DNA of 21,213 bases from an archaeon. Lineage in GTDB: Archaea; Hydrothermarchaeota; Hydrothermarchaeia; JALTZZ01. The translations under genes and the position numbers were made by a program. The DNA is taken from positions 1 to 21,213 of the forward strand of contig JALTZZ010000034.1 of NCBI GenBank assembly GCA_027051165.1, given 5' to 3'. Shown here in pieces: positions 4,117-21,170 of the stretch. The notes under the pieces are model-generated. The model searched no databases. It was not told where the DNA came from and saw nothing but the letters and a program-made list of their open reading frames with translations. Positions within the stretch are counted from its first letter, which is position 1; every line of letters begins with the position of its first letter.

Positions 4117-4132
4117 CCTCACAGCTGTGAGG
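4117..4132. promoter_or_regulatory. palindrome module copy a: CCTCACAGCTGTGAGG
   Basis: 16-nt perfect dyad; minus side AAATTGATTTATAAA box then ATG 4085; plus side GTTTCGAAAGGCTTAAGAAG arm upstream of the SPFH gene. Confidence 0.6.
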
Positions 4133-5458: not shown

Positions 5459-5616
5459 TGGGAAGAACAGATCTGCATGTGGAATTCGGAAATCTGATAG
5501 CCTCGGCGATAATATCGGTTTTCTTCATAGTATTGGGATTTTACACCGAAAAGTGGATATCCATCTTGGGGACTATTTTTTGCATCTTATTTATCATGAA
5601 AGGATACAAACACTAA
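5458..5616 (+). CDS. candidate 52-aa two-TM small membrane protein (below the 60-aa ORF-track threshold)
   Basis: ATG overlaps the stop of 5135..5458 (TGATG); translation MGRTDLHVEFGNLIASAIISVFFIVLGFYTEKWISILGTIFCILFIMKGYKH has two hydrophobic helices. Confidence 0.35.
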   Translation: MGRTDLHVEFGNLIASAIISVFFIVLGFYTEKWISILGTIFCILFIMKGYKH

Positions 5617-6215
5617 ACCTCAAAGACATAATCTCTCCACCCAAGTCCGTTTCCATGCGTTACCGATACAACTGCAGCGTTCTTTCCTATTTTCACTTCG
5701 ATGATTTTGTATCCCTTCTTTTTTCTTCTGTCCAAAGGAGCAAAATACTCTCCAATCTTTTCTTGAAAAACTTTTTCATCCGAATAATCAAAAAAGCCCT
5801 TATACTCCTTAGGCTCTACCCCCAACTCCTTAAGCAGATAACGGAGATAGTCCTCTAATTCAACCCATGGATAAACTATTACCGCGATCTCCGGAGTCGT
5901 GTAGCTTCTGCACCTGAAGCAGTATGTCTTTCCATCTTTTATTGACAATCTTCCCTTACATTTCGGGCACACCTCTATTCTTTCTTTCACAAGCTCGGTC
6001 TTCACACCTTTGGGATCTTCCTCCATTAGGAAATAATCTCTGTGTTCAGCATCATAAATGATGTAGAACTTTTCCCTGCAATAGTATACATCCTTAATTC
6101 TGCTTTCTTTCAGCAGAACACGCACTTCATCCTCATCTTTGGTTAGAAGCCTCGCCGGAATTCTCCCACCTTTAACAATTCTGCCTCCGATCCAGCTTGC
6201 CACCAAAACAGCCAT
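5613..6215 (-). CDS. zinc-ribbon protein (CPKC...CFRC), function unknown
   Basis: 200 aa; CxxC-x16-CxxC ribbon; GGAGGAG Shine-Dalgarno 6 nt before the ATG on the minus strand. Confidence 0.6.
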   Translation of the reverse strand: MAVLVASWIGGRIVKGGRIPARLLTKDEDEVRVLLKESRIKDVYYCREKFYIIYDAEHRDYFLMEEDPKGVKTELVKERIEVCPKCKGRLSIKDGKTYCFRCRSYTTPEIAVIVYPWVELEDYLRYLLKELGVEPKEYKGFFDYSDEKVFQEKIGEYFAPLDRRKKKGYKIIEVKIGKNAAVVSVTHGNGLGWRDYVFEV

Positions 6216-6880: not shown

Positions 6881-6894
6881 TCACAGCTGTGAGG
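6881..6894. promoter_or_regulatory. palindrome module copy c (slightly degenerate left arm)
   Basis: TCACAGCTGTGAGG then ATTTGATTTTAAAAAT box; ATG 6925 is 24 nt after the box. Confidence 0.55.
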
Positions 6895-6924: not shown

Positions 6925-7431
6925 ATGAAGGAGTATAAGCACTATAAAAGATTGGAGAAGTGGCTTGCATCTAAAGGATTCAGCATTTTTGAGAAGATTA
7001 GGTATGGAAAGCATGAATTCGATATAGTTGGAATAAATGATATTAAAACTATCAATGTAGAGGTAAAAGAGGTGTTTTTTCAAAGATTGATAGATCAGGC
7101 GAAGAAGAGGCTGGAGCTGAAGATTTTCGATTATGTGTATATTGCTTATCCTTTCAGGAAGAAGCCCAAGGTTGATTGGCTCGCTGAATACGGCATAGGT
7201 GTTATTGATTTATCTAATAACGAGATTGTTTTATCGGCTAAGAGGCTTGAGACCGACTTTAGAGAAAAGGAGAAGTTTATCAATTATTTGTTGAGAAAGA
7301 ATTTTGAAATATCTATTGAGCATGATGACTATTATTTTCTGAAAAGAAGATTGAAGAAAGAGGGGTTTAAGAGCGTTGAAGATTTTCTGATAAAATATGC
7401 TCGGTATGAGCTTGAGGTTTATAAACGCTGA
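6925..7431 (+). CDS. PD-(D/E)xK (restriction-endonuclease/Hjc-NucS-like fold) nuclease-like protein
   Basis: 168 aa; E..L...G...hhFDIVG (D) ... NVEVKE (ExK) motif order; leaderless-type promoter (palindrome 6881, TTTTAAAAAT box, ATG at 6925). Confidence 0.6.
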   Translation: MKEYKHYKRLEKWLASKGFSIFEKIRYGKHEFDIVGINDIKTINVEVKEVFFQRLIDQAKKRLELKIFDYVYIAYPFRKKPKVDWLAEYGIGVIDLSNNEIVLSAKRLETDFREKEKFINYLLRKNFEISIEHDDYYFLKRRLKKEGFKSVEDFLIKYARYELEVYKR

Positions 7432-7450
7432 TTCTCACAGCTGTGAGAAT
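7431..7450. promoter_or_regulatory. palindrome module copy d: ATTCTCACAGCTGTGAGAAT (20-nt perfect, variant outer arms)
   Basis: Begins at the stop codon of 6925..7431; acts as its terminator hairpin; pairs with copy e across a 72-nt iteron-bearing spacer. Confidence 0.6.
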
Positions 7451-7522
7451 TATCAATTAGTTGGCAATTCGTTGGCAATGACAACAAATAGCATTCTCAA
7501 TTAATTATCAATTAGTTGACAA
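7448..7522. repeat. iteron-like direct repeats between palindromes d and e
   Basis: AATTATCAATTAGTTGGCAA (7448-7467) repeated as AATTATCAATTAGTTGACAA (7503-7522); additional TTGGCAAT at 7472. Confidence 0.7.
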
Positions 7523-7540
7523 CCCTCACAGCTGTGAAGG
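7523..7540. promoter_or_regulatory. palindrome module copy e (one mismatch: CCCTCACAGCTGTGAAGG)
   Basis: Seen directly; 72 nt from copy d. Confidence 0.5.
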
Positions 7541-7544
7541 TAAG

Positions 7545-7650
7545 CTTATACATTTTTAAGCTTATACATTTTAATGTATAATTCTTTAAAAAAGCTTATA
7601 CAGCTGAATGTATAATCTTTTTTAAATGATTATCCAGCAGAATGTATAAA
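7545..7650. repeat. nested dyad array of TTATACA / TGTATAA half-sites
   Basis: Half-site 7545-7554; full palindromes TTATACATTTTAATGTATAA (7563-7582) and TTATACAGCTGAATGTATAA (7597-7616); half-site 7641-7650; overall symmetric around ~7595; followed by TGTAACTTAGTTACA palindrome 7666-7680. Confidence 0.65.
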
Positions 7651-7736
7651 GATAGGTTGCACCTGTGTAACTTAGTTACAGGGGTGTGACTTTACCATTT
7701 CCTTTATTCTTTAAGAAAATTCTTAAGAGCAAAAAA

Positions 7737-8135
7737 TCACACCTTCACAGCTGTGAGGAACTTTCTTTTATAGTAGTGGACGGTTGAAACCGGGATTCCG
7801 AGCCTTTTTGAAACCTGCTTAACGGTTAAACCCTTTTTGAGAAGCTCAATCACGGGCTTCGGATCTCTCCTTTTAGGTCTTCCCGGCATTTTGCACTCGG
7901 CAACAAGATCAACGCCCACCTTTTCCAAAGCTCTTTTTATCTTGCTCGGAACCGCTTTGTGCAGGCTCGGCGGAATGGAAATCTCTTTTATGTTCGGAGC
8001 CTTGGAAAGAATGTGGACGAGCACCGCGGTTGAAGGTCTTATGCTCAAATGAACCTTCTCGGTTTTTTCATCGAGCTTTTCCTCAATTTCGTGGAAAATT
8101 TCTTCAATGGTTTTAGCCTGCAGCTTCACTTCCAT
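7737..8135 (-). CDS. helix-turn-helix DNA-binding protein (C-terminal HTH), candidate regulator
   Basis: 132 aa; C-terminal GRPKRR...LTVKQVSKRLGIPVSTVHYY HTH resembling resolvase/transposase-N HTH; ATG 8135 sits about 30 nt after the GTTCGAAAATCTTAAGA arm of palindrome 8178. Confidence 0.7.
   Translation of the reverse strand: MEVKLQAKTIEEIFHEIEEKLDEKTEKVHLSIRPSTAVLVHILSKAPNIKEISIPPSLHKAVPSKIKRALEKVGVDLVAECKMPGRPKRRDPKPVIELLKKGLTVKQVSKRLGIPVSTVHYYKRKFLTAVKV
7742..7758. promoter_or_regulatory. palindrome module copy f (CCTTCACAGCTGTGAGG)
   Basis: 5 nt after the stop of minus gene 7737..8135; terminator-like position. Confidence 0.55.
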
Positions 8136-8177: not shown

Positions 8178-8192
8178 CTCACAGCTGTGAGG
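8178..8192. promoter_or_regulatory. palindrome module copy g, bidirectional promoter
   Basis: Plus side GAATTCGATTTTTAAGCTTTAAGGTTGCTGGTGGTGGGT then ATG 8231; minus side GTTCGAAAATCTTAAGAG then ATG 8135. Confidence 0.65.
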
Positions 8193-8230
8193 AATTCGAT
8201 TTTTAAGCTTTAAGGTTGCTGGTGGTGGGT

Positions 8231-8563
8231 ATGTATGTTGATAAGGAGAAGCAACTTCAGGGCTTAATTAAAAGCTACATGGTGTATGCTCAGAACTTGG
8301 GGATTTCGGAGAGGGAACTTTTGGATATGATATACTATGCGGCGAGAACGAGAGGGGATCAGTATAAGTGCCTGAACTGCGTTTACTCAAGGGCGCACAA
8401 AAGCATAAACGAGAAGAAAGTTGAAAAAGAGGGAAGGATAAGCATATACGCAAGGCAGTGCGTTTTCGGGATTTTCTACAGAGAGGACTGCCCGGTTCAG
8501 GTTCCCATAATCGAGAGGAAAAATGATGAGGCTTCTCTACGAGCTGAACAGGAAAGCGAGTGA
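8231..8563 (+). CDS. cassette gene A (copy 1): 110-aa Cys-containing protein (KCLNC ... QC ... DC), unknown
   Basis: ATG at 8231 (track start 8216 is TTG) 30 nt after GATTTTTAAGC box and preceded by GGTGGTGGGT; 80-90 % identical paralog at 20097..20414. Confidence 0.6.
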   Translation: MYVDKEKQLQGLIKSYMVYAQNLGISERELLDMIYYAARTRGDQYKCLNCVYSRAHKSINEKKVEKEGRISIYARQCVFGIFYREDCPVQVPIIERKNDEASLRAEQESE

Positions 8564-8885
8564 AACCATAAGGTTCAAAGCCCTTGCATTCTGGCTCGGA
8601 AACGCTGTTAGCATCGTTGAAAGAGGAAAAATAATCAAGGCAACGGTTTTCCTCGAAGGATATCAGAAAGCTCCAAATATTGTAGTTATAAACGAAGAGA
8701 GAATTTCGTGCACGAAGAAGGGAAGGAAGTGCGATTCCTTGAGAACGAACGGCGTGTGCTCCCACGTTCTTGCCGTCCTTTACGCCGTCTGCAGAACAAC
8801 CGGCTTCAGAGGTGAGGAGTATTGGAGGCTGAAGAAAAAAGCGCAGAATTTTCTGAAAAGCTGGAGTGCAAAAAGAAAGAGGTGA
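8523..8885 (+). CDS. cassette gene B (copy 1): SWIM-type zinc-finger protein
   Basis: 120 aa; ISCTKKGRKCDSLRTNGVCSHVLAVLYA fits the SWIM CxC..CxH signature (CSHVLAVL resembles the canonical CKHILAVL); overlaps the end of A; paralog at 20389..20751. Confidence 0.7.
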   Translation: MMRLLYELNRKASETIRFKALAFWLGNAVSIVERGKIIKATVFLEGYQKAPNIVVINEERISCTKKGRKCDSLRTNGVCSHVLAVLYAVCRTTGFRGEEYWRLKKKAQNFLKSWSAKRKR

Positions 8886-9124
8886 AGAATGCGATAATAT
8901 TTATAGGTGCGACCGCAATGTATCTATTTTACGTCGTTCTGCTGGCAACCTTCATGCTCGCATACGGGAGCGATGCGAAGCAGGTTGTCGTGGACGTGAA
9001 CGGCTTCGGAGAGGCGAAAATCGAATACATAATGCTGCTATTTCTCACTCCGCTGCTCACGCTTGCTTATTACTACATAGCCGAAGAAATGAGCTGCAGA
9101 AGGTGCAGAATCAGAAAATCCTGA
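8882..9124 (+). CDS. cassette gene C (copy 1): 80-aa two-TM membrane protein with C-terminal CRRC; start re-called to GTG overlapping the B stop (GTGA)
   Basis: track ORF 8822 begins at TTG; the in-frame GTG at 8882 overlaps the B stop, and the paralog has ATG at the identical position (ATGA at 20748); hydrophobic helices IIFIGATAMYLFYVVLLATFML and IMLLFLTPLLTLAYYYI. Confidence 0.55.
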   Translation: MKNAIIFIGATAMYLFYVVLLATFMLAYGSDAKQVVVDVNGFGEAKIEYIMLLFLTPLLTLAYYYIAEEMSCRRCRIRKS

Positions 9125-9260
9125 ACTCCCCCTTTCTCAGCTTTTCTTCAATCTTCTTCAGCTTTTTGTAATCGAGCCCGTATTTTTCCGCAGTCTCCTT
9201 CCATCTTCCGTTGCCCAGAAGAATTTGTATCATGTCGTGAAGCTTGATCACGATCTTCAT
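9111..9260 (-). CDS. cassette gene D (copy 1): convergent 49-aa protein, possible mini-HTH
   Basis: Not in track (<60 aa). MKIVIKLHDMIQILLGNGRWKETAEKYGLDYKKLKKIEEKLRKGEFRIF. Minus-strand palindrome 9289 plus GAATTCGATTTTTAAAATTTTATAAAAAT box, then ATG. 3' end overlaps C by 14 nt antisense. Paralog at 20977..21126. Confidence 0.45.
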   Translation of the reverse strand: MKIVIKLHDMIQILLGNGRWKETAEKYGLDYKKLKKIEEKLRKGEFRIF

Positions 9261-9288
9261 ATTTTTATAAAATTTTAAAAATCGAATT

Positions 9289-9303
9289 CTTCACAGCTGT
9301 GAG
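9289..9303. promoter_or_regulatory. palindrome module copy h
   Basis: CTTCACAGCTGTGAG; minus side GAATTCGATTTTTAAAATTTTATAAAAAT then ATG 9260 (gene D1). Confidence 0.55.
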
Positions 9304-12439: not shown

Positions 12440-13359
12440 GTTTCGTGGGTAGAACCTGCTACTACATTTTTTACGTGAAAAACAAGGTAAAAGCTTATCT
12501 TGTGAAGAGCGATTTCCTTGAAATGACGAGAAACAACGTATGGTTCTGCGAGACTCCAGATATCGGCATTAGAGAGCGGGAAAAAGTTGAAGAATACCTT
12601 CCAGAAATCTTTGAGCCTCCGAAGAGGTTCAAAGAGCTGGAGCTGATATACAACAACGGAACCACCAGCAAAATTTCTTATAAAGAATATAAAAAGTATG
12701 AAAGAAGCTACAATGTTCTGGACTACATAAGAAGACACGTAAAGAAGGTCAGAGTAATAAAAAGGCTTCCGGGGTATGAAGTTTACGGCTGGTGCAAGAC
12801 TGCAGAGTGCGATTTCGATGTTCTGTATCTGCTCAACGTTGCAAGGAAAATTTCGGAGAAATACGGAATCAGAGCAAGATTCGAGGATGAGGGCGAAATT
12901 TACTACGGTGATATCGTAAAAGGTGAGCTGAAGGGTATGGAAATAAGCGATGAGATTATAGCAGAGCTGAAAGAAAAGCACTTCAAAATACTTGAGGCAA
13001 GGATCCCGCTGAACATAGCAAAGTTCTTCAAGCAGTATCCGGACTGGATAGACTTCAGTATAAAAACTTTGACGGAGTTCCTTGCAACCGACGACGATTC
13101 TGTTGATATACTGTTCGGAAGGAAGAAAGGAAAGCTCAATGTTCCAGCTGGACTCTCCGCCGTAAAATTCAGCGAGAAAATGTATCCATTTGCAGCGCTG
13201 ATTCACGAAGAAACCTATGAAATGCTTGAGATCCTCAAGGGATCTCTCGACATGACGGAGGATGAGATACTTAAGCTTGCGTTTAGAGCGGTTGCAACGA
13301 AGTATAGTTACATGTTTGACAAATATATCAAAGAAGTTCCGGCGAGGTATCTGATATGA
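12436..13359 (+). CDS. hypothetical 307-aa protein
   Basis: GTG start overlapping the upstream stop; K/E-rich; ATGA overlap with the next gene; antisense ORF 12373..13401 judged spurious. Confidence 0.6.
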   Translation: MSFVGRTCYYIFYVKNKVKAYLVKSDFLEMTRNNVWFCETPDIGIREREKVEEYLPEIFEPPKRFKELELIYNNGTTSKISYKEYKKYERSYNVLDYIRRHVKKVRVIKRLPGYEVYGWCKTAECDFDVLYLLNVARKISEKYGIRARFEDEGEIYYGDIVKGELKGMEISDEIIAELKEKHFKILEARIPLNIAKFFKQYPDWIDFSIKTLTEFLATDDDSVDILFGRKKGKLNVPAGLSAVKFSEKMYPFAALIHEETYEMLEILKGSLDMTEDEILKLAFRAVATKYSYMFDKYIKEVPARYLI

Positions 13360-14015
13360 TAAAGTATAGATGTCTCGCAGTAACCAAAAATCCGGTAGCA
13401 CTTGAACATAAAATTAAAGCAGAAATTGAAAAGTATTCTTGGTATAGATTTAGACCAAGAATTTACAGACTTCCGTTCAGAATCGCTATAACCAAGAAAA
13501 AGCCGGTGAGATTCGCATTTGCCTATGCCTATACATCCTGGCAAAAATTTTACTGCTCATCGAGCGAGAATATACCAAACAGCTATAAATTCATTGAAGT
13601 TTATCACAAATCGAAGAAGTATTTCACAGTGGTCGTAAAAGGAGAGGGTTGCAATTTCAGTGCTTATCTCTGCGTCATAATTCTCAACAGACTCAGAGAG
13701 CTTTGGAAAGAAGCGTATATAATAATCAAAAGAAATGATGACTACAAATACGGAGAGCTGAAAGATGATATGGTTGTGGGCGAGGACGGAATTAAATATC
13801 TCATTGTTGAGGAGCTGTTCTTCGAGGAATACGAAAAGCATCTGAAAGAAATAGAAGTTCCAGAGCTTTTAGCCGAACGTCTGGATTTGATAGAAACAGG
13901 CATAGAGAGGCTTAAAACCAAGCTTATATTTCCGCCCGTGAGGAGAATAATAAGAATACGAGAAGCTCGCAGAGAAATACGGATCCTTCGAAAATGCAGT
14001 ATATCATATATTTAG
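13356..14015 (+). CDS. hypothetical 219-aa protein
   Basis: ATGA-coupled to 12436..13359; basic C-terminal tail RRIIRIREARREIRILRK. Confidence 0.55.
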   Translation: MIKYRCLAVTKNPVALEHKIKAEIEKYSWYRFRPRIYRLPFRIAITKKKPVRFAFAYAYTSWQKFYCSSSENIPNSYKFIEVYHKSKKYFTVVVKGEGCNFSAYLCVIILNRLRELWKEAYIIIKRNDDYKYGELKDDMVVGEDGIKYLIVEELFFEEYEKHLKEIEVPELLAERLDLIETGIERLKTKLIFPPVRRIIRIREARREIRILRKCSISYI

Positions 14016-14132
14016 AGCCGTTGCCGGCGATGAATACAGGCTCAGCGTCCCGGCGAGATATTTAATTTAGTTTTTTTGTTTATTTTTTAACGGAAAGTTT
14101 TATTATCGTGAAGGGTTAAATAGTATAACATT

Positions 14133-15143
14133 ATGATAACTGTGCTTGAATTGGAGAATTTTAGGGGAGTAAAAAAAGGCAGGATAGAATTAGCTCCGCT
14201 TACAATTCTCCTCGGTGGAAACAACTCCGGAAAAACAACAATCCTTGAAGCACTTTTCTTAGCTCCAAATCCCTTCCGTGGAGTTCCTTATTCTTTAAAA
14301 CCTTATAATGCAGCAGTAGCAGTCCTTCGTTATCTTCATGAAACTTTGGACAGCAAAGGTTATGCCTTCTTACTTTACAATTATATTTTAAACTCTGCTA
14401 AAATATCTTGCAGAGCTGATAATATGCATTACAGTCTCGTTTTTTCGAAGGAACAACCTTCACAAGACCTCATTTCAGTAATTTTAACCAAGCAAGATTC
14501 TTCTTGGACTGTAGGAAGATTATCAACTGTACATGATAATATCACTCCAATAAGTTCAGAATTGTATATGAAGAATACTCTTCTTATTTCCTCAAAACTC
14601 AGAGATTATGGATACCGATATATTGAGGAGAACTGGGCAGCCATTATAAACCTCGGAATATGCAGAAAAGTTGCAAAGGAAACTTCTGAGCTTGTTTCTG
14701 AAAATTATATAGATATAACCATGGAGCCTTTCCTTGGAGGACAACTTGCTATCTATGCATTTTTGGAGGACGGAAGGAGGATAAGGCTGGGAGATCTCGG
14801 TGAGGGTGTTCAGAACTACATACTTGCGAGAGTACTCTACGAAGTGGCAAAGCCAGAGACCCTTCTGTGGGATGACGTTGAGGCGCACTTTAATCCAAGG
14901 ATGCTCTTAAGAATTGCGGAATGGTTCTCCGAACTTATAGAGAAAAATAAACAGGTTATAGTTTCCACGCACAGCTTAGAAGCGGCTAAAATAATTGCTG
15001 GCATGGCTGAAGAAAAGGCAAGAATATACCTCACATCTTTAAAAGACGGTGAGCTTAAAGCTAAAAGCCTCACTCTTAAAGAAGTTGAAGAGCTACAGGA
15101 AGCCGGGATTGATGTAAGAGTTGCGGAGCCGATGCTGCTATGA
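14133..15143 (+). CDS. ABC-type / AAA_21-OLD-like ATPase (defence-associated ATPase family)
   Basis: 336 aa; N-terminal LENFRG...LTILLGGNNSGKTTILEAL Walker A; C-terminal LLWDDVEAHFNP (Walker B-like DD) and QVIVSTHSLE (H-loop); 117-nt AT-rich promoter region upstream; ATGA-coupled to the next gene. Confidence 0.8.
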   Translation: MITVLELENFRGVKKGRIELAPLTILLGGNNSGKTTILEALFLAPNPFRGVPYSLKPYNAAVAVLRYLHETLDSKGYAFLLYNYILNSAKISCRADNMHYSLVFSKEQPSQDLISVILTKQDSSWTVGRLSTVHDNITPISSELYMKNTLLISSKLRDYGYRYIEENWAAIINLGICRKVAKETSELVSENYIDITMEPFLGGQLAIYAFLEDGRRIRLGDLGEGVQNYILARVLYEVAKPETLLWDDVEAHFNPRMLLRIAEWFSELIEKNKQVIVSTHSLEAAKIIAGMAEEKARIYLTSLKDGELKAKSLTLKEVEELQEAGIDVRVAEPMLL

Positions 15144-15829
15144 GGCTGTATCCGCTTGATCAAACAAGTGGAACAGCAGGAAATCTACGTGAAATATCAA
15201 AAGAATTGAAAATAAAAATATTAACATTTTATGTTAGAGAAAGAATTACATCCCTAATAGTTTTAGCGGATGGTCGGCACGACGATATTGCAGTAGCCTT
15301 AATTGCACATCATCAAAACGGTAGATATACTGTCGGTATAGTTAAGCCAAAAGGTAAAACAAGATATGCGTGTATAGAAATTCTACCTTCGTATGTCAAA
15401 ATAGGTAATATTAGGAAAATAGCGTTCTTTATAGATCAAGAAGATGAGAGTTTGGAAAGTGTCTATCGAACAGCCGAGAACAAGCTAAGAAAGACTGTAA
15501 ATGACTTTGAGGTCTTAGATGAGCGGGAAAGAGTAAAAATATACAGATGCAACTACGGTGGAAAGGAATTCGATTTTATATTTGTTGTCAACGGTCTTAA
15601 CGATATTCCAGCAAGAAAACACTGTATAGAAGATCATTTTATCCATGTTGCTATGAATATAAACCCTTCCATAAACATTAGCAGTGAAATAGACCCTAAA
15701 GTATTTTGGAAACGGCTTAATGAAGATATTAAGAAAGATGTTCTGAAGCAGCTGAAGGGAAACAGAAGGCTTTTGAGGGATAATTTTCCCCAGCAGGTAT
15801 ACGGATGCGAACTGCTTGAAAAAGATTAA
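15140..15829 (+). CDS. 229-aa partner of the ABC-like ATPase; acidic LIVLADGRHDD motif (possible divergent Toprim/nuclease-like, unverified)
   Basis: ATGA overlap with the ATPase stop; conserved-looking acidic patches SLIVLADGRHDDIAV and EFDFIFVVNGLND; ends 12 nt before palindrome 15841. Confidence 0.6.
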   Translation: MRLYPLDQTSGTAGNLREISKELKIKILTFYVRERITSLIVLADGRHDDIAVALIAHHQNGRYTVGIVKPKGKTRYACIEILPSYVKIGNIRKIAFFIDQEDESLESVYRTAENKLRKTVNDFEVLDERERVKIYRCNYGGKEFDFIFVVNGLNDIPARKHCIEDHFIHVAMNINPSINISSEIDPKVFWKRLNEDIKKDVLKQLKGNRRLLRDNFPQQVYGCELLEKD

Positions 15830-15840
15830 TCTAAAATGCA

Positions 15841-15856
15841 CCTCACAGCTGTGAGG
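15841..15856. promoter_or_regulatory. palindrome module copy l (16-nt perfect), bidirectional terminator position
   Basis: Lies between convergent gene ends 15829 (+) and 15888 (-). Confidence 0.55.
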
Positions 15857-15887
15857 ATTAACCCGATGAAAGGAGGATTGAAAGAAA

Positions 15888-16205
15888 CTATTTGAATCCG
15901 CTTTTTAAAATAGCCTTAGCCAAATTTTCATCCCTCTGCTCAGAGAACTGATTTAGCCTTTCCCTCATTCTCGTAATAACGTTCTTAAGCTCTTCAATTT
16001 CCTTCTCTTTTCTTCTTATTTCTAAAAAAAGAGTTGTATTTTCATCTTTAAGCTCTTTTATCTGTTTCTTCAGCTTTGCGGTCTTCTTTTCCGTAAGCAA
16101 ACCTGAAAACACGAGCTCGCTGATAAAAGCTAAAATAAGAAAGATTATCATTGTGTTTAAATCTTCCTGCATTCCCGCAATAAAGGCGAAGACAACGCCT
16201 ATCAT
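15888..16205 (-). CDS. small membrane protein with N-terminal TM region and coiled-coil tail
   Basis: 105 aa; MIGVVFAFIAG...IIFLILAFISELVFSGLL then a K/E heptad-like region; ATGA-coupled to 16202..16546. Confidence 0.55.
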   Translation of the reverse strand: MIGVVFAFIAGMQEDLNTMIIFLILAFISELVFSGLLTEKKTAKLKKQIKELKDENTTLFLEIRRKEKEIEELKNVITRMRERLNQFSEQRDENLAKAILKSGFK

Positions 16206-16592: not shown

Positions 16593-17150
16593 TCAGCGGG
16601 GTCTGTAGTATTCTCTGTCTTTTCTTATCAATCGATTCTCAAACAACTCTGCAGTAGCTCTATACACTTCCTGCCTGCTCATGTCTAAATAGTTCATTAT
16701 CTGCGAAAAAGTCGCTCCGTTATTCTGTTTAATAAATTCATAAACCCTTCTTGCAGATTCGCTGAGATTTTTAGTTTTTTCTTCATCGGATTTCTGATAT
16801 TCTTTTCTTTCTTCTCTTCTTCTGATTTCGCTCTCATACTCTCGAAAGGATTGATTTTTTAACTCTTCGAGAATCTGCAGAATCAGATCTACTTTCCTTT
16901 CTATTTTATCGAGCTTTTCCAAGATTTCCGTGCTCTGACCTGCCGTGCTTATAGAGATTTTCTGCAGCATCTGCTTTGCAACATAGCTTCTCGCTCTCAT
17001 TATTTTTTCCTGTAGATCTGGGGCATTCTGATAGTCGTCCCTGTATTCCGCAAGCTCCTGCAGAAATTTTATTTTTTCCTCCTCACTCTTACCTTCCAAA
17101 GCCTTTTCTATAAACTTCTTAGCATCCTCTATAAACAGCTCGTCCATCAT
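16593..17150 (-). CDS. winged-helix transcriptional regulator with N-terminal coiled coil
   Basis: 185 aa; C-terminal ARRVYEFIKQNNGATFSQIMNYLDMSRQEVYRATAELFENRLIRK wHTH; bracketed by palindromes 16573 (3' end) and 17179 (promoter). Confidence 0.7.
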   Translation of the reverse strand: MMDELFIEDAKKFIEKALEGKSEEEKIKFLQELAEYRDDYQNAPDLQEKIMRARSYVAKQMLQKISISTAGQSTEILEKLDKIERKVDLILQILEELKNQSFREYESEIRRREERKEYQKSDEEKTKNLSESARRVYEFIKQNNGATFSQIMNYLDMSRQEVYRATAELFENRLIRKDREYYRPR

Positions 17151-17907: not shown

Positions 17908-18543
17908 TTAATTTTTTACCCTCCATAAACCAGCTTTTAAAGAAACATAATATCTTGCTCCCAGAGCATTAATACAAACATCGTCAAATATCTGTCTAAA
18001 ATACGGCTTCGCTAAGTCATAGTATCTGAAATATTTTTCCGCAGTTTTTAAAATTTTATCGTAAAATTTTTTCTTGCGCTCGGTGTTATTGTCCTTAGTT
18101 ACATAGGAGGCAAATACCAAACCGTAAATATTCTTTGATTTTGCGGATAAATCAACACGATAACCTCCGTGCTGATCGGGTGGTTTATACTTTAATTGCT
18201 TGTATAAATTCTTTAAGGTCGGAGAAATTTCGTCGTCGGCGCCGTGATCCAAAAATTTATGATTGTTCGTGATGTATTTCACTTCAATCATACCATAAAT
18301 AATCGGATCATCGAGCTGTCCCTTTAATAAACAAATATCTATTCTGTTTTCGTCTTTCTTTCCCAAATTCGGCAGTGCGAATACATTGCCTCCGCTGGTA
18401 CAGTAAACATGATACGTGAATTCTCTCACTAAATAATCCTCTATTTTGCCTGCAAGTTGGAGCATTGCGATTCTTTCTTTTTTATTCTTCAGATAATCTA
18501 AAAAAGAGTAATATAGTTCTATAACGCTGTTCATATTATTCAT
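17908..18543 (-). CDS. PD-(D/E)xK nuclease-like protein
   Basis: 211 aa; RIDICLL (D) ... MIEVKY (ExK) motif pair; ATGA-coupled to 18540..19046. Confidence 0.6.
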   Translation of the reverse strand: MNNMNSVIELYYSFLDYLKNKKERIAMLQLAGKIEDYLVREFTYHVYCTSGGNVFALPNLGKKDENRIDICLLKGQLDDPIIYGMIEVKYITNNHKFLDHGADDEISPTLKNLYKQLKYKPPDQHGGYRVDLSAKSKNIYGLVFASYVTKDNNTERKKKFYDKILKTAEKYFRYYDLAKPYFRQIFDDVCINALGARYYVSLKAGLWRVKN

Positions 18544-19046
18544 CCTCTCAGCAGATCAATTATTGAGTTCCATTTATCCTTATAGTTTTCTATATCCTTT
18601 AGCTTTATGACATGCACGTCCGGCTTTCTTTTCGTTTCTTTTTCCATTTTTAGCATTTCTTCAAATGTTGTGTTATGTTTTTCCTGATATTTCCGTATAT
18701 AACTCTCTATTCTCTCTATCATCAAATTTTTCATTTCTTCTTTTGTTAAAATGTAGTAATTTGGTTTTTCTAAGTTAGAGATGTCTACAAAAATGTATGG
18801 AGAAATTATTTTTTCTTTAATTTTTTCTTTGTAATTACTCCAATGTGAGGTGAGAATGGGAAACTCCCCTTTATCCGAGCATTTTACCTGAATGCCTATG
18901 GAAATGTTTGTATCTGGATTCAACGCAATTACATCGTAACCCTTGGTATTTCTCGATGTGGGCATGGCGATTAAATTTCTTTTTGAAAGTTCCGCACATA
19001 CTAAAAACACGCCAAGATTTCCCTTAAACTCCCTTTTAATTTTCAT
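18540..19046 (-). CDS. PD-(D/E)xK nuclease-like protein with an Hjc-resolvase-like N-terminal motif pattern
   Basis: 168 aa; VCAELSKRNLIAMPTSRNTKGYDVIAL...IGIQVKC resembles the Hjc ERE..VRIPTS..PDIFA..ECK order; GGTAGGAGGT Shine-Dalgarno 7 nt before ATG. Confidence 0.6.
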   Translation of the reverse strand: MKIKREFKGNLGVFLVCAELSKRNLIAMPTSRNTKGYDVIALNPDTNISIGIQVKCSDKGEFPILTSHWSNYKEKIKEKIISPYIFVDISNLEKPNYYILTKEEMKNLMIERIESYIRKYQEKHNTTFEEMLKMEKETKRKPDVHVIKLKDIENYKDKWNSIIDLLRG

Positions 19047-19106
19047 AAAATTTACCTCCTACCAAAGTTGCAAAAAACGTTGACGTTATAAAAAATTAAA
19101 AAATAA

Positions 19107-19448
19107 TTACAGCACAATTAATGGCTTCTTTTTCAGATTCTCTACAGTTATGTAGTTTTTGTCAAAGGTTACGTTTATATCGTCTCTTATAATAACTCTG
19201 AAATGCTCACCTCTCTTGAACTCTTCCTCGAAGTTCTCTGGATCAACAAGCTCTAAATCATCTGTTATCCTCTTAACTACGCCTTTCTCCATCAAAGGCT
19301 TCAATTCCTCAACGGAAAACTCTCCGCTCTCTGGAATAATGTGAATGACATCTGTATCTTCGTCTAAGTATTTCTCCCAATCCATAACGGATTTAACATC
19401 GGTTTCCAAACCGCCGTAATAAACCGTATGCTTAATCAGCTTATACAT
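19107..19448 (-). CDS. hypothetical 113-aa acidic protein (start re-called to ATG at 19448; track start 19457 is GTG)
   Basis: AGGAGGTGGT Shine-Dalgarno 4-5 nt upstream of ATG 19448. Confidence 0.55.
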   Translation of the reverse strand: MYKLIKHTVYYGGLETDVKSVMDWEKYLDEDTDVIHIIPESGEFSVEELKPLMEKGVVKRITDDLELVDPENFEEEFKRGEHFRVIIRDDINVTFDKNYITVENLKKKPLIVL

Positions 19449-19958: not shown

Positions 19959-19974
19959 CCTCACAGCTGTGAGG
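19959..19974. promoter_or_regulatory. palindrome module copy o
   Basis: Minus side GGTTCGAAAAATTTTTAAACGG box, then about 155-nt GC-rich leader, then TTG 19767. Confidence 0.55.
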
Positions 19975-20042
19975 AACTCAACTTCCCTAAGGTATCTACA
20001 ATGTTTTAATCATGAAAAAACTATTCATAAACTTTACTGCAT

Positions 20043-20058
20043 CTTCACAGCTGTGAGG
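20043..20058. promoter_or_regulatory. palindrome module copy p (CTTCACAGCTGTGAGG)
   Basis: Plus side GAATTCGGTTTTTAAATTCTAAGGTTTCTGGTGGTGTGT then ATG 20097 (paralogous to copy g arm). Confidence 0.6.
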
Positions 20059-20096
20059 AATTCGGTTTTTAAATTCTAAGGTTTCTGGTGGTGTGT

Positions 20097-20414
20097 ATGT
20101 ATGTTGATAAGGAGAAGCAGCTTCAGGGATTGATTAAAAGCTATATGGTGTATGCTCAGGGCTTGGGGATTTCGGAGAAGGAGATTTTAAATATGATATA
20201 CTTCGCCGCCCGTGAGAGGGGAGATAGATTCAAGTGCCTGAACTGCATATACAGCAGGGCTCACAAAAGCATAAACGAGAAGAAGGTTGAAAAAGAGGGA
20301 AGGATAAGCATATACGCAAGGCAGTGCGTATTCGGGATTTTCTACAGGGACGACTGCCCGGTTCAGGTGCCTATAATCGAGAGGAAGGATGAGAGGTCTT
20401 CTTCACAAGCTTAA
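20097..20414 (+). CDS. cassette gene A (copy 2)
   Basis: Paralog of 8231..8563 (about 85 % aa identity over the first 95 aa; C-terminal tails differ); ATG 20097 follows GGTGGTGTGT; track start 20088 is GTG. Confidence 0.6.
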   Translation: MYVDKEKQLQGLIKSYMVYAQGLGISEKEILNMIYFAARERGDRFKCLNCIYSRAHKSINEKKVEKEGRISIYARQCVFGIFYRDDCPVQVPIIERKDERSSSQA

Positions 20415-20751
20415 CAGAAAAGCGAGCGAAACAATAAGGTTCAAAGCGCTGGCATTTTGGCTCGGAAATGCGGTTAGCATCGTTGAAAAGGGGAAAACAA
20501 TTAAGGCAACGGTTTTTCTCGAAGGATATCAGAAAGCTCCGAACATTGTGGTTATAAACGAAGAGAGAATTTCATGCACGAAGAAGGGGAGAAAGTGCGA
20601 CTCTTTAAGAAGAAACGGCGTGTGCTCCCACGTTCTTGCAGTTCTGTATGCTCTGTGCAGAACAACCGGATACAGAGGTGAGGAGTATTGGAAGCTGAAG
20701 AAAAAGGCGCAGAGCTTCCTCAAAAGCTGGAGTGCAAAAAGAGTGAGATGA
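20389..20751 (+). CDS. cassette gene B (copy 2): SWIM-type zinc-finger protein
   Basis: Paralog of 8523..8885; same CTKKGRKCDSLRRNGVCSHVLAVLYA motif; a compensating indel pair at the A/B junction keeps the B start. Confidence 0.7.
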   Translation: MRGLLHKLNRKASETIRFKALAFWLGNAVSIVEKGKTIKATVFLEGYQKAPNIVVINEERISCTKKGRKCDSLRRNGVCSHVLAVLYALCRTTGYRGEEYWKLKKKAQSFLKSWSAKRVR

Positions 20752-20990
20752 AAAGAGATGTAATAATTATAGGTGCAACTGTAATGTTTATGTTTTACAC
20801 CGTCCTGCTGGCAACCTTCATGCTCGCATACGAGAGCGAGGCAAAGCAGGTTGTTGTGGATATCAATGCCTACGGAGAAGCCAAAATAGAATACATAATG
20901 CTGATGTTCACCACTCCGCTGCTCGTGCTCGCTTATTATTACATTATTGAAGAGTTAAGCTGCAGAAGATGCAAGCTTAAAAAATCCTGA
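20748..20990 (+). CDS. cassette gene C (copy 2): 80-aa two-TM membrane protein (ATG overlapping B stop, ATGA)
   Basis: Track start 20688 is TTG; ATG 20748 overlaps the B2 stop exactly where copy 1 has GTG; C-terminal CRRC conserved. Confidence 0.55.
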   Translation: MKRDVIIIGATVMFMFYTVLLATFMLAYESEAKQVVVDINAYGEAKIEYIMLMFTTPLLVLAYYYIIEELSCRRCKLKKS

Positions 20991-21126
20991 ACTCCCCCTT
21001 TCTCAGCTTTTCTTCGATCTTTCTCAGCTTTTTGTAATCGAGTCCGTATTTTTCAGCCGTCTTCTTCCATCTGCTGTTCCCAAGCAGAATCTCCATCAGG
21101 TCGTGAAGGTTCATCACGATCTTCAT
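20977..21126 (-). CDS. cassette gene D (copy 2): convergent 49-aa protein
   Basis: MKIVMNLHDLMEILLGNSRWKKTAEKYGLDYKKLRKIEEKLRKGEFRIF; 41/49 identical to copy 1; minus-strand palindrome 21154 plus AATTTAAAAGC box upstream. Confidence 0.45.
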   Translation of the reverse strand: MKIVMNLHDLMEILLGNSRWKKTAEKYGLDYKKLRKIEEKLRKGEFRIF

Positions 21127-21153
21127 GCATGCATAACAGCTTTTAAATTCTAT

Positions 21154-21170
21154 CCTTCACAGCTGTGAGG
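21154..21170. promoter_or_regulatory. palindrome module copy q, bidirectional
   Basis: Minus side ATAGAATTTAAAAGCTGTTATGCATGC then ATG 21126; plus side GTTTGTATTTTTAAGCTCTCTACTTATTGGTGGTGCGGATGG runs off the window end. Confidence 0.6.

Follow-up and report, generated by a model that had tools for sequence, protein, structure and literature searches.

A conserved triple-dyad array between convergent genes of an archaeal mobile element, a candidate docking site for an element-encoded protein

We analysed a 21,213-nt stretch of archaeal DNA (contig JALTZZ010000034.1 of assembly GCA_027051165.1, positions 1 to 21,213; hereafter the window), which holds part of a mobile element, and focused on the gap between a nuclease-like gene, G7, and a helix-turn-helix (HTH) protein gene, G8. 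This gap, with its coordinates rechecked in the window, spans 7432-7736 (305 bp) and is the meeting point of two convergent transcription units, the 3' ends of G7 and G8. The original prediction had described a 310-bp gene-free hub here. The gap is real and contains no open reading frame (ORF) of at least 36 aa, but it is slightly shorter than proposed, and the rightmost palindrome (PAL f) lies inside G8. A structured non-coding RNA gene was considered and rejected: no tRNA or tmRNA was found in the gap, Rfam, scanned at E ≤ 1 over the entire window, gave no match in the hub and a single weak miRNA-like match elsewhere, and outside the dyads described below the hub is unconserved in the sister element. 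The element is a mosaic, and the gap has been assembled from copies of a family-wide palindrome, termed PAL here, which delimit two short non-coding cassettes. No other non-coding stretch of the 21 kb is rich in repeats; the window's other convergent junction (15829-15888) has one PAL and lacks the dyad array described below. From left to right, the locus contains the following features:

6925-7431, plus strand: G7, a 168-aa PD-(D/E)xK-like nuclease-like gene from the ORF list, the left gene of the convergent pair, ending at PAL d
7431-7450: PAL d, a perfect 20-nt palindrome, ATTCTCACAGCTGTGAGAAT, an exact copy of the family-wide palindrome and a homology-block border
7451-7522: d-e spacer, a unit of ~44 nt present twice, with 11-bp phased CAATTnGTTGG-type repeats (the iteron-like part of the original prediction)
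7523-7540: PAL e (core 7526-7537), an exact PAL copy kept in the sister element, left border of the dyad-array cassette
7541-7572: 16-nt tandem duplication, TAAGCTTATACATTTT in 2 copies with 100% match, which creates an extra left half-site at 7546-7552
7562-7649: triple-dyad array, three dyads at an exact 34-bp period
7660-7686: imperfect hairpin, CACCTGTGTAACTTAGTTACAGGGGTG, containing the small palindrome TGTAACTTAGTTACA (7666-7680)
7687-7744, minus strand: 3' trailer of G8, containing CTTAAG palindromes and, at 7731-7736, an A6 run that reads T6 on the coding strand
7741-7760: PAL f (core 7745-7756), inside the last codons of G8, where it encodes LTAVK (G8 ends in FLTAVKV and stop); a homology-block border
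7737-8135, minus strand: G8, the gene for a 132-aa HTH protein with a DUF1699_N alpha/beta domain, a PGRPKRR arm and a Hin/resolvase-type three-helix HTH

The array is built from three dyads of the form TTATACA-N6-TGTATAA, namely TTATACATTTTAATGTATAA at 7562-7581, TTATACAGCTGAATGTATAA at 7596-7615 and a third, TTATCCA-GCAGAA-TGTATAA, at 7630-7649, all with a period of exactly 34 bp. The heptamer TTATACA is present in 12 copies in the window against 2.6 expected, and six of the 12 are within 104 bp (7546-7649). With up to 2 mismatches allowed, the full dyad was found three times in the window, each time in the hub, against 0.37 occurrences per shuffled window; at the same setting it is confined to one locus in both the window and the sister element and is located at no gene's promoter. 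The linkers between the dyads, TTCTTTAAAAAAGC (7582-7595) and TCTTTTTTAAATGA (7616-7629), are mirror images of each other, so that the array as a whole forms an 88-bp imperfect palindrome centred on dyad 2, which is thereby flanked by an A6 run (7588-7593) and a T6 run (7618-7623). Judged by its sequence, this A6-dyad 2-T6 arrangement has the layout of a bidirectional terminator for two convergent genes. The array folds as a single strand with a z-score of -4.0, and its GC content of 24% makes it the 7th most AT-rich among the non-overlapping 100-bp windows. All repeats listed in the original prediction were recovered where it had placed them, including a second palindrome-spacer-palindrome pair at 19961/20045, in numbers far beyond chance. 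Two full dyads and two half-sites had been read in the present array: the two dyads are confirmed, but the right half-site (7643-7649) is part of the third dyad and the left one belongs to the 16-nt duplication.

A single sister element with the hub region was found (L027; contig JBPLHO010000065.1 of GCA_054046405.1, of which L028 is a read-assembly copy), syntenic to the window at ~87% identity. It displays the order PAL, three dyads at a 34-bp period, PAL, in the exact register of the window. PAL e is conserved there along with the 8-nt junction AGGT(A/G)AGC that precedes the first TTATACA, and the 16-nt duplication is absent. At the position of the window's hairpin 7660-7686 the sister element holds an intact PAL, 10 nt from the outer half-site of dyad 3. 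From this position and the partial similarity, the hairpin is probably a decayed PAL, the former right border of the array cassette; the small palindrome singled out earlier is present, as a part of this longer structure. Between the two elements, changes were found at 3/42 half-site positions (93% identity) and 4/28 linker positions, as against 9/18 positions of the dyad centres (50% identity; Fisher p = 4e-4). The CAGCTG centre of dyad 2, which had been taken as a link to the main motif of the window, reads TCTAAA in the sister element, and the link is coincidental. Dyads that keep their arms while their centres vary freely bear the mark of a dimeric DNA-binding protein. These data, from two independent copies of the array, indicate that the array is probably a selected protein-docking site, and they bear out the proposal of a real, unique, repeat-rich cis element adjoining a DNA-binding protein gene and having the conservation pattern of a protein-binding array. 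As read from its sequence, the array resembles what a partition centromere would need, a unique phased repeat array suited to cooperative dimeric binding; it also has the dyad sites, conserved half-sites and unconstrained centres of repressor operators.

Similar dyads were seen in other contigs. An unrelated head-tail virus contig, IMGVR_UViG_3300005265_000120 (L038), carries two TTATACA-N6-TGTATA(A/G) dyads with 34-bp spacing at 5568-5621, placed on either side of a GCTTATAAAT box; a small gene cluster, with a gene for an 81-aa HTH protein, lies downstream. This protein showed no significant similarity to G8 (E 0.065), and the pair may be a convergent or distantly related operator. Three further IMG/VR contigs (L045-L047) with tandem TTATACA dyads at 33-, 41- and 35-bp periods were set aside as analogues, not homologs; they have no PALs and are not known to be related.

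We then examined the palindromes that frame the array. The core TCACAGCTGTGA occurs in 17 exact copies in the window, against 0.01 expected, at 4119, 6432, 6881, 7435, 7526, 7745, 8179, 9291, 10678, 11355, 12069, 15843, 16577, 17181, 19961, 20045 and 21157, and PAL is also present in the sister element, in a second close relative (L039) and in five distant integrated relatives (L040-L044). It is located near nearly every gene of the element family, ~10 nt upstream of the TATA box. The module reads CACAGCTGTG, then AGGAAnnnn, then the archaeal-type TATA box TTTWWAAGCT, which starts ~10 nt after PAL, and then ATG, at +31/32 from PAL (leaderless), +41/42 (behind GGTGGTG) or +44/45. In the window and two close relatives, an ORF of at least 45 codons follows 44 of the 110 PAL sides; a single PAL is often common to two divergent promoters, and PALs also occur at 3' ends. 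The PAL and TATA module is retained even at ~50% identity in the large surface protein, in relatives with a GC content of 47-53%. A canonical promoter of this kind, at 6881, drives G7. None of the six PAL sides in the hub leads to an ORF, so these sides depart from the promoter-module rule even though their palindromes are exact family copies; on a position weight matrix (PWM) of 44 bona fide promoters (median 17.7 bits) they score from -6.7 to 9.4 bits in the window. The best of them, to the left of PAL d, resembles a promoter to a moderate degree (TTTATAAAC; 9.4 bits in the window, 12.6 bits in the sister element) and is directed antisense into G7. PALs d, e and f, presented in the original prediction as features of the hub, are 3 of the 17 copies and are not hub-specific, because they are ordinary members of a set that stands at promoters and cassette borders.

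The role of PAL as a border was quantified by comparing the window with its relatives: a PAL lies no more than 30 nt from 6 of the 22 homology-block ends, where 1.1 would be expected (p = 5e-4). Ends in the comparisons with the sister element and L039 include 4167, 6431, 7447, 7783, 11368, 12069, 15891, 17242 and 20045. The block shared with the sister element ends at 7447, 7 nt from the centre of PAL d, and resumes to the right of PAL f, at 7759 or 7783 according to the BLAST settings. PAL-bounded segments undergo insertion, deletion and duplication, and also inversion, as L039 shows with its G12-G14 block, whose orientation relative to G2 is reversed. Such rearrangements suggest that cassettes are shuffled at PAL, through homologous exchange between promoter modules or a site-specific system. 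Short PAL-to-PAL segments with a spacer are common across the element family. Searches with exact PAL patterns (the 16-mer in viral contigs, the 20-mer in genome and metagenome contigs) returned only isolated matches in unrelated contigs, and a literature search for the PAL sequence gave nothing relevant. In other archaeal systems, the intergenic repeats of halovirus HF2 carry promoters (PMC8707807) and archaeal virus promoters have conserved regulatory motifs (PMC11065993). PAL is likewise a short conserved repeat, intergenic in an archaeal mobile element and promoter-linked; it differs from those cases in being a perfect palindrome of 12-20 nt with a rigid distance to TATA and ATG, shared between divergent genes, and found also at 3' ends and at mosaic breakpoints.

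Several further observations concern PAL-bounded segments. A four-gene cassette is duplicated at 8179-9291 and 20045-21157 with ~81-87% identity; in both copies the PAL-to-PAL distance is exactly 1112 bp. The fourth gene of the cassette, at 9111-9260 on the minus strand, is an unannotated ORF of 49 aa (MKIVIKLHDM...) whose PAL promoter is canonical and leftward, and it recurs at ~21000-21126 in the second copy. A non-coding PAL-spacer-PAL module, 84 bp from PAL to PAL, lies at 19961-20056 and recurs with ~80% identity at varied positions in related elements (8297-8392 and 13264-13359 in L039, and in shortened form at 17942-18004 in the sister element). Its sequence is unrelated to the d-e spacer; possible identities are an empty cassette, a looping pair or a small RNA. 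The sister element (18488-19153), L039 (15015-15680) and L040 (20555-21265) each encode a short TFB-like protein (221-236 aa) that has a TFIIB zinc ribbon; the L039 copy, the one scanned, has one cyclin repeat besides the zinc ribbon. Element-specific promoter recognition by these proteins together with PAL is a possibility.

The d-e spacer is the other repeat-bearing part of the hub. Its direct repeats are AATTATCAATTAGTTGGCAA at 7448-7467 and AATTATCAATTAGTTGACAA at 7503-7522, with TTGGCAAT at 7461 and 7472; CAAT starts at 7454, 7465, 7476, 7498, 7509 and 7520, in 11-bp phasing, and the autocorrelation reaches 0.53 at lag 11 and 0.71 at lag 44. The spacer of the sister element is 33 nt shorter, cannot be aligned to that of the window and has 11-bp repeats of its own, GGCAAGATTAA / GGAAAGATTAA. 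The phasing of the proposed iterons is thus common to the two elements, but their sequence is not, and the window's repeat was found in none of the other retrieved loci.

Beyond the sister element, conservation of the array fails: it is absent from L039 and from L040-L044, so the conservation anticipated in related elements extends to one of them. L039 shares core genes with the window at 87-98% identity and its ENA sample also yielded a fragment of the window at 99.9% identity. It does not have G7, the hub, G8 or the subsequent three-gene cassette, and a protein search of its contig found no G8 homolog. G8 and the dyads therefore occur together in the window and the sister element and are both absent in L039 and L040-L044. 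At 1292-1553, L039 carries instead ~22 TTATAA hexamers over ~260 bp with an 11-bp period and symmetric ends, bordered by a PAL on each side and adjoining the G12-G14 block in a variable region. Many of the hexamers occur as GCTTATAAGC, the family TATA-box sequence, and two GTGTTCA-N7-TGAACAC dyads are embedded among them. From this sequence and setting, we propose to read the L039 array as a swapped specificity module. An AT-rich region with 38-nt repeats in L040 was tried as a further array and rejected, being a membrane-protein gene. Canonical ParA genes are present in L039 (at 19023) and L040 (at 19016). L040 lies within a contig of 133 kb that also carries ribosomal and RNA-polymerase genes; the L21e protein encoded there is closest to those of Pyrococcus, Methanocaldococcus and Thermococcus. 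We therefore assign the family to uncultured hyperthermophilic Euryarchaeota, as a mobile or integrated element. Searches of the region, G2 and G8 by blastn and tblastn against phage and plasmid collections gave no match, species-representative genomes gave no match to the element family, and the window contig has no terminal repeats or signs of circularity.

G8 was examined as the neighbouring DNA-binding protein. It matches DUF1699 in Pfam (E 1e-10), together with HTH_23 and HTH_7. In its AlphaFold2 model (predicted local distance difference test score, pLDDT, 81), residues 1-80 form a four-stranded alpha/beta domain, and a disordered PGRPKRR linker leads to a three-helix HTH. It has no match to the Resolvase catalytic domain and no RVS-type serine motif (N-terminus MEVKLQAKTI); in PHROG it has a weak match to the small terminase subunit (E 0.01). 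The gene ends 88 bp from dyad 3. Its 3' trailer at 7687-7744, probably its terminator, is not kept in the sister element, where a gene cassette is inserted, and a third G8 variant (L029) does not have PAL f. The Hin DNA-binding domain reads a TTATCA-type half-site in the major groove, and its GRPR arm reads the adjacent A/T-rich minor groove. The C-terminal half of G8 (GRPK...LLKKG...LGIPVSTVHYY) is, as we take it, closely like that domain (GRPR...LLEKG...FGIGVSTLYRY), and TTATACA beside AT-rich sequence would fit a Hin-type reading by G8, by resemblance only. By this analogy, G8 is a tentative candidate for the binder of the dyads, at somewhat less than even chances. Further small DNA-binding candidates of the element are a wHTH protein (gene at 16593-17150) and the product of the 49-aa ORF at 9111-9260. 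G8 as a binder of PAL was rejected because L039-L044 have PALs without G8. No relatives of G8 were found in the genome and viral contig collections; the DUF1699 family has 194 representatives at E ≤ 1e-3, and a literature search for DUF1699 gave nothing relevant. A DUF1699 relative lies directly after the topoisomerase VI genes in CP003534.1 (L054), presumably a Pyrococcus genome. In a further locus (L048, 2960-2981), an ACAATA-N10-TATTGT dyad lies across the TATA box of a chromosomal DUF1699 gene itself, which hints at autoregulation in this uncharacterised family. G7, on the other side of the hub, has phrog_12193 as its sole family match (E 1e-8). Its homologs are limited to the window and the sister element, and a separate homolog search returned G7 alone.

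Taken together, the sequence features are best accommodated, with a probability of about 0.4, by the reading that the array is an exchangeable non-coding docking site for an element-encoded dimeric protein, probably G8, serving as a non-promoter cis site of the partition/incompatibility type. In this scheme, dimers of the protein would bind the three dyads cooperatively, roughly on one helix face (34 bp being about 3 helical turns). G8, as the likeliest binder, would read the 7-bp half-sites in the major groove with its Hin-type HTH and the adjacent AT-rich minor groove with its GRPK arm. The complex would cover ~100 bp and give each element a single cis handle, the most likely use of which would be segregation or incompatibility, in a centromere-like manner as with sopC or parS downstream of the binder gene. 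The A6 and T6 linkers around dyad 2 would stop transcription from both convergent genes and so keep the site untranscribed. Beyond the conserved dyads, every step of this scheme is inferred; a role in partition or incompatibility specifically, drawn from analogy, is doubtful when taken on its own. Of the functions named in the original prediction, the partition-type site is the live reading. The occurrence of two array types in one sample would be the outcome expected of incompatibility avoidance.

A number of observations weigh against this reading. The conservation test and the co-occurrence of G8 with the dyads draw on very few sequences, there being only two independent copies of the array. 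No par operon adjoins it; G14, the only P-loop candidate of the window, is not recognisably ParA (E = 0.5 to a ParA/MinD structure), and the ParA genes of L039 and L040 are far from any array, that of L039 being 17 kb from the TTATAA array. The distant integrated relatives L040-L044 have PALs and no comparable array. In the sister element, a 333-aa gene to which no function was assigned sits between the array and G8, so that their adjacency is not strict. The DUF1699 relatives looked up are chromosomal and in housekeeping operons, and the family therefore looks like general regulators, not dedicated centromere binders. Finally, the half-sites resemble the family TATA boxes (GCTTATAAGC), and the outer half-site in the sister element, which scores 16.5 bits, is as far from a PAL as a canonical TATA box would be.

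This last point leads to an operator-gated promoter, which we regard as unlikely: a repressor platform over PAL-type promoters, in which the outer half-sites would be TATA boxes, bound dimers would block TATA-binding protein (TBP), transcription factor B (TFB) and RNA polymerase, and the product would be a short non-coding or antisense transcript, for example antisense to G7. The 16.5-bit sequence, CTTATACA, follows the right PAL of the sister element after 10 nt and comes close to the promoter median, though its score is partly built in because the half-site is itself TATA-like, and its equivalent in the window reads TTTATACA. The left side of PAL d is promoter-like in the same direction in both elements, the array linkers are TATA-like, and the dyad pair of L038, with the same 34-bp spacing around its box, stands upstream of a gene cluster. 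No ORF follows in either direction, however, and the downstream sequence is not kept between the window and the sister element; T5-T6 runs on both strands would end transcripts within ~50 nt. The PAL that gives the canonical geometry is decayed in the window, leaving that geometry to the sister element only, and the spacing on the PAL e side is non-canonical, with scores of -6.7 (window) and -13.3 (sister element). A master operator, as originally proposed, is contradicted because the dyad has one locus only in the window and in the sister element and stands at no gene's promoter. A small probability is given to a passive junction, that is, a bidirectional terminator zone with leftovers of cassette recombination (decayed promoters, duplicated TATA-like sequence, PAL borders) and no dedicated binder. 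The excess of homology-block ends near PALs, the PAL-spacer-PAL segments common in the family, the terminator layout of A6, hairpin (dyad 2) and T6, the TATA-like half-sites, the unconserved d-e spacer and 7650-7744 region, and the slippage shown by the recent 16-nt duplication are all consistent with this explanation. What it leaves unaccounted for is the 93% identity of half-sites against 50% for the centres, the exact 34-bp register in both elements, and the absence of any array from the junction at 15829-15888.

A replication origin, at which an initiator would bind and melt DNA at the symmetric AT-rich array with its phased repeats, on the model of iteron plasmids, palindromic viral origins or ORB-flanked archaeal origins, has a slim probability. 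The 24% GC content, the two-fold symmetry with AT tracts around a central site and a strong cruciform-type fold, the adjoining 11-bp phased repeats and the status of the hub as the only such stretch, one per element, would agree with it. Nevertheless, Pfam and PHROG scans of all window ORFs, covering the part of the element that the window holds, detected no gene for Rep, Orc1/Cdc6, MCM or primase, and the ATPase_2/MCM-WH protein of L039 belongs to an accessory cassette absent in the sister element. The site lies between convergent 3' ends, ranks only 7th in AT richness, and is missing in L039, with its core genes 87-98% identical, and in L040-L044. The GC-skew check suggested for an origin is uninformative because the skew tracks the gene strand, flipping with each strand change, and singles out nothing in the hub. 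The origin that had been predicted thus receives no specific support. Very improbable is a res-like accessory recombination site or a pac-like packaging site, the latter with G8 as a small-terminase-like HTH protein, perhaps acting with the nuclease-like G7. The fold of G8 suggests such a site, as do its weak PHROG match, the three dimer sites within ~90 bp and the adjoining nuclease-like gene. However, G8 has neither a Resolvase catalytic-domain match nor an RVS-type serine motif, has no E-helix and is only 132 aa long; res sites I-III do not share this regular geometry of 20-bp sites spaced 34 bp apart; the window scans detected neither capsid genes nor a gene for the terminase large subunit; and the DUF1699 relatives are chromosomal.

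Returning to the docking-site reading, we compared the array with characterised systems. F sopC consists of 43-bp repeats with 7-bp inverted arms downstream of sopB, and R1 parC of phased 11-bp iterons. Like sopC and P1 parS (type Ia), the array has tandem units with paired 7-bp inverted arms, is a unique non-coding cis site directly downstream of an HTH protein gene, and has a repeat phasing that would build a higher-order complex. It has 3 units of 34 bp, compared with 12 units of 43 bp in sopC. Unlike these systems, it has no adjacent parA, G8 is not of the ParB/SopB family, the host is archaeal, and binding of the array by a protein is a prediction. The 11-bp phasing of the parC sites of R1 and pB171 (type II/Ib) is matched by the d-e spacer of the window and by the array of ~22 TTATAA hexamers in L039. 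In contrast to parC, no par operon lies downstream of the repeats, a ribbon-helix-helix protein of ParR/ParG type was not identified, and the d-e repeat sequence is not kept between the sister elements. The triple operators, Ss-LrpB boxes 1-3, A. fulgidus MDR1 O1-O3 and lambda OR1-3, also have three dyad sites ~3 turns apart, with conserved half-sites, free centres and overlap with TATA-like sequence. They lie in gene control regions, whereas the present array is between convergent 3' ends with no downstream ORF, and no Lrp-, DtxR- or cI-type protein is encoded here. Tn3 and gamma-delta res differ in that the dyads here are equal-sized and evenly spaced and G8 has no catalytic serine signature or E-helix. 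Archaeal oriC (origin recognition boxes with a DNA-unwinding element) and iteron origins resemble the array in being AT-rich and non-coding, with repeated, partly inverted sites and overall symmetry; they differ from it in that it has no adjacent initiator gene or skew signal, shows no ORB motif that was recognised (none was tested for), lies between convergent genes and is absent in close relatives. Tandem dyad arrays adjoining HTH genes are a known kind; the present array is new, in an undescribed archaeal element family. More unusual than the array is the PAL system, in which a universal promoter palindrome doubles as a cassette border. A bolder proposal, which we consider improbable, is that the hub as a whole is one swappable non-coding specificity cassette (a centromere or incompatibility determinant) and PAL, a single 12-bp palindrome, both a universal element upstream of promoters and a recombination point for the insertion, deletion, duplication and inversion of coding and non-coding cassettes, giving an integron- or shufflon-like organisation in Archaea.

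Two other segments of the window stood out in the comparison with the sister elements. Positions 1-1800 have a GC content of 27-32%, against ~40%, and contain an M78/ImmA-type metallopeptidase gene (804-1766) absent from the sister elements; this left end is probably a recent acquisition. At 14133-15829, an AAA_15/AAA_21 ATPase gene (336 aa) overlaps a 229-aa partner gene within a segment, 13351-15890, absent in L027; the pair looks like an inserted defence or abortive-infection module.

If the hub is a terminator zone with recombination leftovers, the region is routine. If the docking-site reading is true, the binding of the dyads by G8 would be the first function for the DUF1699 family. Hardly any cis maintenance sites (centromeres, origins or copy-control arrays, for example) are known from mobile elements of hyperthermophilic Euryarchaeota, and the array with G8 would provide a compact pair, ~90 bp of DNA and a 132-aa protein, for the study of segregation and incompatibility and for shuttle vectors. 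The PAL system may outweigh the array, as a model for the wiring and reshuffling of transcription units in archaeal mobile elements.

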